Virus record (IMG/VR): IMGVR_UViG_2531839664_000032
DNA from: a virus
Lineage: Duplodnaviria > Heunggongvirae > Uroviricota > Caudoviricetes
Direction: 5' to 3' (one strand)
DNA: 28,751 nt
Position numbers: made by a program. The number at the start of each line of letters is the position of its first letter. Positions within the stretch are counted from its first letter, which is position 1. Below, piece after piece: positions 20,901-23,900 of the stretch.

Positions 20901-23900
20901 TCTCTCACCGGTATCAACAATTAACCCAATCTCCATCAGGTGTCGTAAGCTGTCCTGCACAGTCTTTTTGTTCAGTTCCGTTACTTCTGCCAGTGCAGAT
21001 ACAGACGGGTATGCACACAAATCGGCACCGCACATATCAGCAAGCCAGGTCAATACTGACTTACTGGATGAACTGCCGGTTTTCACCTTTTTAGCCCATC
21101 GTAGTGCATCGATACTCATACGAACCCCTGGCAGACATTTGTTTATCTGCAAAGTAATATTGGTATTGCTGACGATACGCGTGCTTGAAAGCAATAGCTT
21201 TTTCTATAAGCTCGTCAGTCTCACGTTCCACAACAACTGGATCCGCAAAAAGCAGCCCGGACTCCACCACATCGCCATATTCTTTGTTTAACCCGGCGAT
21301 CATGTACGTAATGCTTTTTCCGTCAGTAATTTCACAATACAATCTGAAATCGCTGATCCGGATAGCCTCCATAATTGCCGGAATCTGCGCCGTGAATTTG
21401 TCACGCTTATCTCTGGTGTCGATAGCTTTCCAGCGTTCGAATATCTTCACCCGGTTAACGCCCAGCGCCCGTTGATCAACCTCGCCATCATTAAACGTGA
21501 CGCGTTGAACATCGATGTTCGGGCGTTCTTTCAGAGCCCAGAATGCTTCCGTGATTAATATCGTCGCCTGCTCCTGTGTCATTCCTGGTCGGCATACCCA
21601 GGTATCCAGAGCCTCACAAACCTGTTCAGTGGTGATTTTCATTGTTCAACCGCCCCGCCCGCTTTGCCTTACGATATTCGTCATAAACTTTGGGGTCGTA
21701 CTGAAGTTCCCCGCCGGATGCCTCTTGCAGGCGCATCGCGCGACCTTCAGGAACCAGTTCCCCCCATGCAGCAACGCTTGCCAGCCTAACTCCTGCGACA
21801 TTGGCAAGCTTTGTTTTGCTGCCAAAAAACGCTATAGCATCAATTTTCAACATATCGAACCCCTTAGATTTTCCTAAGAAAACTAGATCGTAGAGAAACC
21901 TAAGTCAAGAAAAATTAGAATTACCTAATATGAAAAACGAAACCTTCGGTGCTCGCCTCTTATACAGGCGAAAAAAATTAAAACTGTCTCAGGCCGCATT
22001 AGGTAAGCTGGTCAAAGTGGCTCACGTAACAATTTCTCAATGGGAAAGAGATGAAACACAGCCAGCGGGGAAGAGATTATTCGCACTGAGCCAGGCGCTT
22101 CAGTGCTCGCCGACTTGGCTTCTTTTTGGAGATGAAGATAAGCAACCAGGCGAACCGATCCCAGATAATCAGCCAGTCAATCTGACAGAAGATCAAAAAG
22201 AGTTGCTTCAACTGTTCGACGCACTGCCTGAGTCAGAGCAAAAGGCTCTGTTGTCAGAGATGCGTGCTCGAGTTGAGAATTTCAACAAACTTTTTGAAGA
22301 ACTACTCAAAGCTCGCAAAAGAAGCGCAAATAAATAACCCCCCTTTTTTTCGCAACTCTCTGTAATAAAAAGCACAAACTTTCAAATACTTGTGTTTTTT
22401 ACATCAAGAAGCTTAGGTTTTTCTACACAAAAAGCTTGACCATAACTCTTAGGTTATTCTAAATTCTACTCATCAAGACACCGCACGGTGTTCTCAGCAA
22501 ACAGTTCCGCTACCCGGCGTTAAGGGGAAGCAGAGGATTTCTCAGTGGGCGAAGTCAAACATCAGAATGGAAGGCGTCCAGGGATCAGCAAAGAAACAGC
22601 GATGGCGCTTTATATTGATATCAGCGCCATTGCCGGACAGGTAAGAGTTATCAGAGCGGTAACTAAGCGGTATGCGCCTTTACTTCAGAAAGTCTCTGGT
22701 GAGTGCACCGAAGATATTGTCAACGATTTCGTCATCGAACTGCGAGGACTCATCTTCAGTTACAAGGTGACCACAATTTTTGCAGATGGCTCCCGCGAAA
22801 CTGTCAGAGCCCTGCGGCTTAAAGGATGTGTCAAAGACTTAGCCACCACATTCTGGGCAAGAAAACTTGATTGTATTCATAACCAATTTCCTCTCGAGTA
22901 ACAGACCCCTCAGAGGATACCACCTCGCCTGACGTGGTTAAAAAGCAGGCAACGCTAACCACAAGGAGCCGACATGCAGAAACGAGACCCCGTCATCATC
23001 GCGCCAGACTATACCGATGATGAACTTTATGAGTGGATGCACCAGAAAATTAAGGCGGTGCAGGACCTGAAATGGGCCAATGAAGCCAGGGCTAAGCAGG
23101 CTGAAAATCTGTCCGCTCTGGAGCAGGATATCACCAATCTGGAAAAAGCAGCGGCATTAAGCATTGCCAGAATGATTACATACCACGTTAATAGCTAACC
23201 AACGAGGCTAATAATGGAATTTAAAGATTTACCAACGCCATTACAGGAAATGGCATCGAATATAGTTCGTTCACAACTGGCTACTCTTGACCTTAGTACC
23301 GCAGAAAAAGAAACCATCGATAATATGGTTCGTAATGTGCGCAATGCTTTTTCTGGGCTATATGGTTCTGATAATCAAAAGCAGGAAAGCGATGTTAATA
23401 AACGGGTAATTTCTGTTTGCGTGAATGGCCATGTTCTTTCATCAATCAAAACAGAAACGGCGACAGTCTTCGATTGCCTTTGCATTGTACAGAGCCTTGT
23501 TGATGCCCTGTTTCGTTCAGTGAATTTAGAAAATGATGCAAATCTGCGAGGGCGCATAATAGCACATCCATATGCACATACTTTAGGCTCTGTGGATATC
23601 AAAGATCCCACAAATCTTTAATGAAATAGTTAACGCGAATTGTACTTGCTCTTTCGGTTGCTTTCAGAATACGCGTTGAAACTGCTGGCGGTAATTTGGT
23701 ATTCCATTTATTAAAATCATGCCCGGGAAAGTACTCTTCGAAAATACTTTTAACTGCAGACTCGCCTATTGAAATGCTGCTTACCATGCGATTTTGATAA
23801 AGGCATTTAGCAATAAGAGTTGATTTTAACATTCACCCTCCTGAGGGTTGGTAATTAAGGAGTTCTCCACGGGTGAAGTGGAGTGCGTGCGCCGGACACG

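Follow-up and report, generated by a model that had tools for sequence, protein, structure and literature searches.

The window analysed here is a DNA stretch of 28,751 nucleotides from a virus of the class Caudoviricetes (IMG/VR record IMGVR_UViG_2531839664_000032). From about 21.6 to 27.3 kb it carries the immunity and early-left region of a lambdoid prophage of the Qin/dicB type, and between the dicA-like repressor gene and the small RNA gene dicF lie the four open reading frames (ORFs) of this study. ORF1, ORF2 and ORF3 are co-oriented and code for 118, 74 and 135 amino acids, and ORF4 (77 amino acids) converges on ORF3; ORF calling returned exactly the coordinates, lengths and orientations that had been predicted for them. 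The interval belongs to Sp9/CP-933O, a prophage of enterohaemorrhagic Escherichia coli (EHEC) that is sited at ompW in strain Sakai, and the 1561 bases spanning it are 100% identical to chromosomes of O121, O26, O103 and O157 EHEC. In Sakai the four genes bear the locus tags ECs_5719, ECs_1764, ECs_1763 and ECs_1762, and dicB is ECs_1761. As judged from sequence comparison, the conserved unit within the interval is the C-terminal domain of ORF3 (ORF3C) together with ORF4, and the interval as a whole is a mosaic of ORF1, ydfC (ORF2) and a mobile two-gene cassette (Table 1).

Table 1. Features of the immunity and early-left region, with positions in the window
Feature	Position	Strand	Basis or remark
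P22-Cro/DicC-like gene	21626-21853	-	domain scan
DicA-like helix-turn-helix repressor	21930-22337	+	domain scan
Operator-like repeats CTTAGGTTTTTCTA / CTTAGGTTATTCTA (motif CTTAGGTTnTTCTA) bracketing the early-left promoter	22412-22425, 22448-22461		repeat analysis
Sigma-70-like promoter TTGACC-18-TAAATT, positional equivalent of K-12 dicBp	22436-22465	+	9/12 consensus
Four ORFs studied	22545-23832	three +, ORF4 -	ORF calling
ORF1	22545-22901	+	118 aa from GTG; RefSeq WP_001240336
ORF2 = YdfC orthologue (ECs_1764)	22974-23198	+	74 aa; acidic, predicted helical
ORF3 + ORF4 two-gene cassette, 634 bp	23212-23845		absent from K-12 Qin; blastn against K-12
ORF3	23214-23621	+	135 aa
ORF3 N-terminal domain, residues 1-55	23214-23378	+	two predicted helices
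ORF3C = ORF3 C-terminal domain, residues ~62-135	23397-23621	+	motif VNG...T..A..DY...LE.EAN..G+T..H; phrog_23433
Tail-to-tail overlap ORF3/ORF4, 23 bp	23599-23621
ORF4	23599-23832	-	77 aa; identical to Sakai ECs_1762
AGGAGG Shine-Dalgarno of ORF4	23837-23842	-	4 nt before ATG; inside small palindrome CCCTCAGGAGGG
Conserved leader between ORF4 and dicF	23846-23925	-	two hairpins, common loop UUCACCCGUG (minus-strand reading)
DicF small RNA (Rfam RF00039), downstream limit of the slot	24167-24216	+	43.5 bits, E 4.6e-7
dicB, ydfD	3' of DicF
Exonuclease gene, 823 aa	24860-27331

Comparison with E. coli K-12 delimits the cassette. It is inserted exactly between ydfC and the dicF leader; in K-12 the flanking positions (3562 and 3563 of locus L003) are contiguous, that is, the slot is empty. 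To the right of the insert, bases 23846-24881 are 94.7% identical to the K-12 dicF-dicB region (blastn), and the boundary itself coincides with the ORF4 start codon and ribosome-binding site (RBS) in alternative cassettes. The convergent overlap of ORF3 and ORF4 had been predicted correctly to the base.

The convergent pair is found well beyond E. coli. Our collection of loci came from scans of IMG/VR and exact-protein look-ups; a scan of genome contigs gave four loci. ORF3C converges on an ORF4 homologue in every divergent locus that has ORF4 (40/40). The overlap mostly measures 23 bp; three loci have 26 bp, and a divergent subgroup has about 50 bp. When we searched from the ORF3C side, ORF4 was present in 15 of 18 loci; of the three exceptions, L112 has an ORF1 homologue, and L119 and L121 have another convergent gene of about 150 amino acids. 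ORF3C thus stands without ORF4 in 3 of 43 loci, as well as in the 201-aa variants described below, and ORF4 was never seen without ORF3C, an asymmetry which is expected of an effector and its neutraliser. Besides Escherichia, at least nine genera have the pair in their lambdoid prophages. In the Klebsiella locus L015 and the Salmonella locus L014 the gap that separates cI from the ORF3C gene holds repeats of the CI operator motif; the ORF3C gene is therefore the first early-left gene and is faced by ORF4. Among 5426 complete E. coli genomes, ORF4-specific DNA is present in 650 and ORF3C-specific DNA in 652, and about 548 hold at least 80% of the whole four-gene arrangement.

Several genes beside these pairs deserve mention. 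The convergent gene of about 150 amino acids in L119 (2898-3425, minus strand) and L121 (2904-3356, minus strand) is phrog_5286, and in L119 it lies behind the conserved leader that elsewhere precedes ORF4. The Salmonella locus L014 has a SieB-family gene (2695-3177, plus strand) beside the ORF4 homologue and in the same orientation, and in the Xenorhabdus locus L017 a 58-aa CsrA-family gene (3225-3401, minus strand) directly adjoins the ORF4 homologue. In the Yersinia locus L011 an Rfam tRNA match of 38.5 bits (3497-3624, minus strand) lies in intergenic DNA 5' of the ORF4 homologue; with 128 nt it is unusually long for a tRNA.

That the four genes form one module, as originally proposed, does not hold, since other phages and prophages carry different combinations. 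Phage vB_EcoS-813R8 has ORF1 and ydfC and lacks ORF3 and ORF4; in phage Evi the full set of four is present and kil takes the place of dicB after it; other E. coli prophages combine ydfA with a different cassette. In other genera ORF3C and ORF4 are the only constant members. In some O121, O26 and other EHEC genomes an IS600 copy is found between ydfC and ORF3 (L128 1210-2366, NZ_CP027454.1), which cuts ORF3 off from the early promoter and leaves ORF3 and ORF4 themselves intact.

ORF4 is a basic protein with a GRAVY (grand average of hydropathy) value of -0.13 and no hydrophobic span. The AlphaFold2 (AF2) model (pLDDT, the predicted local distance difference test score, 96.7) consists of five helices and is that of a protein predicted to be soluble. 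A fold search with this model against PDB and BFVD gave no match except one uncharacterised homologue, and neither Pfam profiles nor the fold indicated an Hfq/Sm, ProQ/FinO, CsrA, KH, S1 or CSD domain. Homologues of the same length with 55-72% identity were found in Klebsiella/Raoultella, Salmonella, Serratia, Yersinia, Dickeya, Xenorhabdus, Morganella, Proteus and Photorhabdus. Within the close family the N-terminus MLKSTLIAKCL is invariant. An exhaustive HMMER search yielded 163 representative relatives, which are stand-alone proteins of about 75-78 amino acids, the exception being one low-complexity artefact; over this wide family W43 is the sole invariant residue. The differences between ORF4 genes by codon position number 280/195/416, and this pattern points to purifying selection on the protein. 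One source names ORF4 a dGTP triphosphohydrolase; nothing supports this name and we rejected it.

Experimental evidence on ORF4 comes from the TRAPP study of Sy et al. (NAR 2025, PMC7618764), in which ECs1762 was significantly enriched in the UV-crosslinked RNA-associated proteome. The cultures of EHEC Sakai stx- were at an optical density (OD) of 0.8 in MEM-HEPES, and no inducing agent is mentioned (PMC7618764). According to the authors ECs1762 has no detectable RNA-binding domain; crosslinking of the tagged protein to RNA was confirmed by polynucleotide kinase (PNK) labelling, and arabinose-induced pBAD-ECs1762 cultures of Sakai, a strain which carries ORF3, reached OD 0.8 (PMC7618764). From the detection by TRAPP it follows that ORF4 is translated, is present while the early operon is nominally repressed and is in contact with RNA. 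Thus the 77-aa frame, which could have turned out to be untranslated and poorly conserved, is a translated and well conserved gene.

ORF3 is a two-part protein. Residues 1 to about 50 are common to E. coli and Salmonella proteins of 122-212 amino acids with unrelated C-terminal parts, and the PHROG matches for this N-terminal domain are confined to residues 1-63. The AF2 model is of low confidence (pLDDT 50) and was left out of the fold search; it suggests helices at residues 8-23 and 32-50, a beta hairpin, a further helix and a disordered tail. The most conserved motif of ORF3C falls into this tail predicted to be disordered. In other genera ORF3C is a stand-alone protein of 77-90 amino acids or part of a fusion; a word-indexed search with the C-terminal domain alone found close E. 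coli matches only. Altogether ORF3C is fused to three unrelated N-terminal modules, namely the E. coli N-terminal domain, a YdfC-like segment (Yersinia L011, and L105) and a ClpX-type C4 zinc finger (L098 3212-3682, minus strand, of an IMG/VR prophage contig; PF06689, 34.1 bits against a cutoff of 27). YdfC-like genes or domains adjoin ORF3C or are fused to it in 10 distant loci. The literature that we found mentions ORF3 solely as the EHEC typing marker ECs1763 (PMC4060028).

All four ORFs match PHROG families over their full length and all four are annotated in RefSeq. The original prediction had found no assignable motif in any of them. This stands for ORF1, ORF3 and ORF4, as the scans of all ORFs with Pfam, NCBIfam and PADLOC gave sub-threshold noise only and, when PDB sequences were searched with the individual proteins and with profiles of their families, no match fell below E 0.05; it fails for ORF2, which is YdfC (94% identity to K-12 YdfC over 70 amino acids, E 6e-48, BLASTP) and is also named so in RefSeq (phrog_1744). 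ORF2 is the only gene of the four with homology to ydfA, ydfB or ydfC: ORF1, ORF3 and ORF4 have no significant BLASTP match to YdfA, YdfB or YdfC and no match to DUF1391 (PF07151, YdfA). ORF1 is phrog_21318 over its full length (E 4.6e-67). It stands in the place of K-12 ydfA/ydfB, shows no similarity to YdfA or YdfB and moves between prophages independently of the cassette. Its start is ambiguous. The GTG at 22545 has the better Shine-Dalgarno sequence and the same position as the K-12 ydfA start, RefSeq uses the ATG at 22602 (99 amino acids), and this shorter core is backed by the distant homologue in L112, which adjoins the ORF3C gene there and has no room for the N-terminal extension.

The interval is supported as the promoter-proximal part of a DicA-repressed dicB operon. 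An early promoter with repressor-type operators had been predicted, and we find TTGACC-18-TAAATT between two copies of the CTTAGGTTnTTCTA motif. This promoter aligns with the K-12 DNA 5' of ydfA, and the motif is found again between dicC and dicA (21863-21928); repeat family D1 and the inverted repeats I1, I2, I4 and I6 tie the promoter repeats to these dicC/dicA intergenic sites. In K-12, dicBp is under DicA repression (PMC10448788), and ydfABC, dicF and dicB form one polycistronic transcript (PMC10448788, PMC5069750), in agreement with the predicted place of the slot in the early operon between dicA and dicF.

ORF4 appears to be expressed from the other side. The perfect AGGAGG noted for the 77-aa frame is indeed there, and the unrelated convergent genes of other E. 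coli cassettes use the identical RBS. In 16 distinct non-E. coli loci an invariant TGnTAnnnT of the extended -10 type lies about 31 nt 5' of the ORF4 ATG, which supports transcription of ORF4 independent of, and against, the early operon. As an alternative we considered that this upstream sequence is a structured RNA; the RNAalifold result (-1.4 kcal/mol, 5 pairs) led us to read the element as a promoter instead.

In E. coli a leader lies between ORF4 and dicF. It contains the direct repeat D10, CACGGGTGAA (23868-23877 and 23897-23906), and its folding is much stronger as minus-strand RNA, with z -4.06 for the minus strand (0/200 shuffles) versus z -0.66 for the plus strand. The leader is not specific to ORF4, since K-12 has it too and it also precedes unrelated cassettes. 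A comparison by eye with HK022 putL showed no similarity and this idea was dropped. Because ORF3 and ORF4 overlap at their 3' ends, early-left transcription must cross ORF4 in antisense on its way to dicF and dicB, or to recombination genes in other genera, and likewise ORF4 transcripts must enter ORF3. Just 3' of DicF a promoter-like TTAACA-16-GAGAAT (24299-24326, minus strand), which is a match to the consensus only, was noticed; a transcript from this site would cross DicF and the leader in antisense and run into ORF4.

In E. coli the slot is polymorphic. At least five unrelated cassettes share one design, that is, a variable C-terminal domain and a convergent small gene behind a shared leader. 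The alternative proteins with the common N-terminal domain have 201, 208/212, 133/137 and 124/126 amino acids and other C-terminal domains; their convergent small genes code for 63, 69, 76 and 73 amino acids and abut or overlap them by 0-41 bp. The alternative small proteins are mutually unrelated (BLASTP), each in its own PHROG without assigned function. Homology to the window resumes at or beside the ORF4 start codon (23832 in three types, 23878 in L018), and so the alternative cassettes all lie behind one conserved leader; the ORF4-type RBS is kept in three of the four. In the 201-aa variant ORF3C is retained to residue ~128 and ORF4 is swapped for the 63-aa gene, again with a 23-bp overlap. 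Variable content, conserved flanks, the extended -10-like element 5' of ORF4 outside E. coli and a protein present in uninduced cells are the traits of an accessory-gene (moron) hot spot, and the cassette would be a cognate two-component unit within it. In the 133-aa type, the conserved RBS and ATG of L021 (3592-3642, minus strand) open the frame MDKKQIEALQSIIEKQ..., which is not the called 76-aa ORF; the convergent gene of L021 may be mis-annotated. In addition, related E. coli prophages have a PaaA2-ParE toxin-antitoxin pair between the repressor and ydfA (L013 2194-2672; L018/L019 1942-2413), so that the DNA next to the repressor forms a second insertion slot. The PaaA2-ParE system has been studied in O157:H7 (PMC8630535).

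Some further features were noted around the interval. The DicF score lies slightly under the Rfam gathering score of 48, and the Rfam search detected no DicF in the loci from outside E. coli. For STnc100, Rfam gave a match below threshold (24205-24410, plus strand; 32.5 bits, E 3.7e-4, gathering score 47), which covers the 3' end of DicF and the 5' region of dicB. A 124-aa ORF (23826-24200, minus strand) antisense to the dicF leader and DicF was treated as spurious because it has no family match, is absent from RefSeq and runs antisense to the conserved leader. Two strong Rfam matches lie farther away, both on the minus strand: the Hfq-binding small RNA isrC at 14489-14611 (150 bits) and, at 16901-17050 (104 bits), sok, the antitoxin RNA of a hok/sok module.

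The reading that we prefer, tentatively, is that ORF4 is an RNA-binding accessory protein expressed in the lysogen and that ORF3C is its cognate partner, made only upon lifting of the repressor. We suggest that such a switch could proceed in the following steps. In the lysogen ORF4 would be on and would act on RNA as a post-transcriptional regulator or exclusion factor. Once DicA repression is lifted, ORF3 would be made from the early promoter. Convergent early transcription would then silence ORF4, either by transcriptional interference or by antisense pairing. Finally, ORF3C could bind the pre-existing ORF4 protein and neutralise or redirect it, a self-immunity or antidote step which would permit phage development. 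A two-state design of this kind suggests itself because the lysogen contains ORF4, the repressor controls ORF3, ORF4 never occurs without ORF3C and the tail of ORF3C is conserved and predicted to be disordered. The interaction of the two proteins, the direction of the antagonism, the RNA targets and the biological role are the putative parts of this scheme.

Several points weigh against it. TRAPP can also pick up basic proteins that are abundant or sticky, and for ECs1762 the confirmation by PNK labelling relied on overexpression (PMC7618764). The E. coli version of the locus has not kept TGnTAnnnT and has no 9/12 promoter within 300 nt of ORF4, and in RNA-seq data of EDL933 the counts for ORF3 and ORF4 are low, with lysogenic and early expression not separable. 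The interaction of ORF3C with ORF4 is hypothetical, and the tight linkage of overlapping genes could in part reflect the overlap itself. ORF3C may have a role of its own, since the 201-aa variants keep it after the loss of ORF4. No phenotype has been reported for the cassette, and the defence models of PADLOC-DB v2 gave no significant match for any of the ORFs.

Other explanations have to be weighed against this scheme. ORF3C and ORF4 could cooperate, without any antagonism, as one RNA-binding complex which serves the early-left transcript by processing it, stabilising it or promoting read-through of the leader ahead of dicF/dicB or of the recombination genes. The position of ORF3C at the head of the early-left operon in other genera would suit such a role, as would the conserved structured leader directly adjoining ORF4 and the fusions of ORF3C to modules of the oligomerising or adaptor type (the YdfC-like coiled coil and the ClpX zinc finger). 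A precedent from the TRAPP study is an RNA-binding heterodimer of a truncated toxin and its immunity protein (PMC7618764). However, the opposite orientation of the genes implies opposite regulation, the leader is kept in K-12 and before unrelated cassettes that lack ORF4, and for the leader outside E. coli RNAalifold gives no conserved structure. Cooperation is in our view unlikely.

It is likewise doubtful that the two genes are independent neighbours. In that case ORF4 would be a moron gene acting alone in lysogenic conversion and ORF3 an early protein unrelated to it, and the pair would be kept together only by the overlap and by recombination boundaries that lie outside it. The slot is a hot spot of recombination whose edges are sharp, at the start codon and inside ORF3, all four genes shuffle, and contact between ORF3C and ORF4 is our deduction. 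Yet the two genes stay paired at 55-70% protein identity in at least nine genera besides Escherichia and whichever of the three N-terminal modules ORF3C is fused to, the length of the overlap is conserved, and in the alternative cassettes the two-part design returns although their sequences are unrelated. This conservation across genera and the repeated design argue against mere adjacency.

The original prediction saw in the convergent overlap a layout suited to toxin-antitoxin-like control. What stands of this is that the pair looks like a coupled two-component system; a classical toxin-antitoxin module fits its geometry and the expression data poorly. An addiction or abortive-infection pair, with ORF4 as an RNA-targeting toxin and ORF3C as a protein antitoxin, would account for the fact that ORF3C can be an orphan and ORF4 never lacks ORF3C, and also for the contrast between a basic, RNA-binding ORF4 and an acidic to neutral partner with a conserved disordered tail; moreover, genuine toxin-antitoxin modules lie nearby (PaaA2-ParE in L013/L018 and hok/sok in the window). 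But the two genes are convergent and not co-transcribed, where a type II module is a co-directional autoregulated operon, and ORF4 resembles no toxin fold or family. Nor is ORF4 a type I membrane toxin, because it is not hydrophobic and is predicted to be soluble. The putative antitoxin lies behind a repressor-controlled promoter, yet ORF4 is present in healthy uninduced cells, and Sakai grew to OD 0.8 under ECs1762 induction, with the reservation that this strain carries ORF3. On account of the gene geometry and the presence of ORF4 in healthy cells we consider a classical toxin-antitoxin pair quite improbable.

Least probable is a single four-gene module for host takeover, exclusion or anti-restriction under the early promoter with the antisense ORF as control: all four genes do lie between the repressor and dicF, three of them under the DicA-controlled promoter, and genes of the ORF1 and YdfC type are sometimes found beside ORF3C in distant phages, but many other gene combinations occur, the whole arrangement is present in only about 548 of about 650 cassette-bearing genomes, Pfam, NCBIfam, PHROG and PADLOC reveal no anti-restriction or exclusion homology, and we found no evidence for the proposed host-takeover, filamentation or anti-restriction function.

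The scheme of a lysogen-expressed ORF4 and an induced ORF3C may also be put more broadly, in a form that we regard as rather improbable. The slot would then house prophage switch cassettes of a class not recognised before, in which a small effector is paired with a cognate neutralising domain. The effector, in the present case an RNA-binding protein with a novel fold, would be made in the lysogen, its transcription starting from the shared leader and running counter to the early operon. The neutraliser would be carried on the first early-left protein, in E. coli fused to the common N-terminal adaptor, and the unrelated cassettes, at least six in number, would provide exchangeable specificities within a single RNA-level system of defence or regulation that has self-immunity built in.

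The RNA binding of ECs1762, YdfC and the operon frame are already known. In the literature that we searched, the obligate convergent ORF3C-ORF4 pair and its distribution are not described, nor are its location at the start of the early-left operon, the ORF3C fusions and the cassette polymorphism of the slot; a literature search by WP accession gave no match. About 12% of complete E. coli genomes carry the cassette, among them O157:H7, O26, O103, O111, O121 and O145 EHEC, and relatives are present in prophages of many enteric pathogens. Thus an orphan protein from an RNA-binding screen becomes a testable two-component system with an obligate convergent partner, a position at the early-left head and a slot of interchangeable cassettes. 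If the antagonism is true, prophages would have a new way to run a lysogen-specific RNA-binding function that is turned off at induction. The membership of ECs1763 in the cassette also helps to interpret EHEC typing panels (PMC4060028).

Finally, we compare the locus with known systems. The closest is K-12 Qin (dicA - ydfA ydfB ydfC - dicF - dicB - ydfD), which has the same repressor/Cro pair, promoter position, ydfC, leader, DicF, dicB, ydfD and exonuclease gene; the prophage studied here differs in having ORF1 for ydfA/ydfB and the additional ORF3/ORF4 cassette. Nun of phage HK022 is a prophage-expressed RNA-binding exclusion protein encoded at the start of the early-left operon. Like Nun, ORF4 is small, basic and encoded just 3' of the repressor and early-left promoter region, and it probably binds RNA in the lysogen. 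Unlike Nun, it lacks an N-terminal arginine-rich motif, runs counter to the operon and faces a convergent partner of its own; neither sequence nor fold is similar, and no exclusion phenotype is known. On record for ECs1762 are the presence of the protein in uninduced Sakai and its crosslinking to RNA (PMC7618764).

With type I and type II toxin-antitoxin systems the cassette shares two small components, the asymmetry of occurrence, a basic RNA-binding member and a convergent layout with 3' overlap as in type I; it differs in that its genes lack a common transcript, that each of them codes for a conserved soluble protein and that no known toxin or antitoxin domain is present. SieB/Esc of P22 is a prophage defence gene with cognate self-immunity beside the repressor. 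BstA/aba of BTP1 is another such system (PMC8585504). As in these two, the cassette is located directly 3' of a CI-type repressor and would combine, by analogy, a lysogen factor with an element that spares the phage. In contrast to them, it shows no homology and no PADLOC match, and its presumed immunity element is a separate domain of an early protein. RhsFint-RhsFI of EHEC is described as an effector/immunity pair repurposed as an RNA-binding complex (PMC7618764). ECs1762 is unrelated to it in sequence and type of locus and has no reported targets or phenotype; nevertheless both come from one TRAPP screen, and like RhsFint-RhsFI, ECs1762 is horizontally acquired, lacks a known RNA-binding domain and has a putative cognate neighbour.

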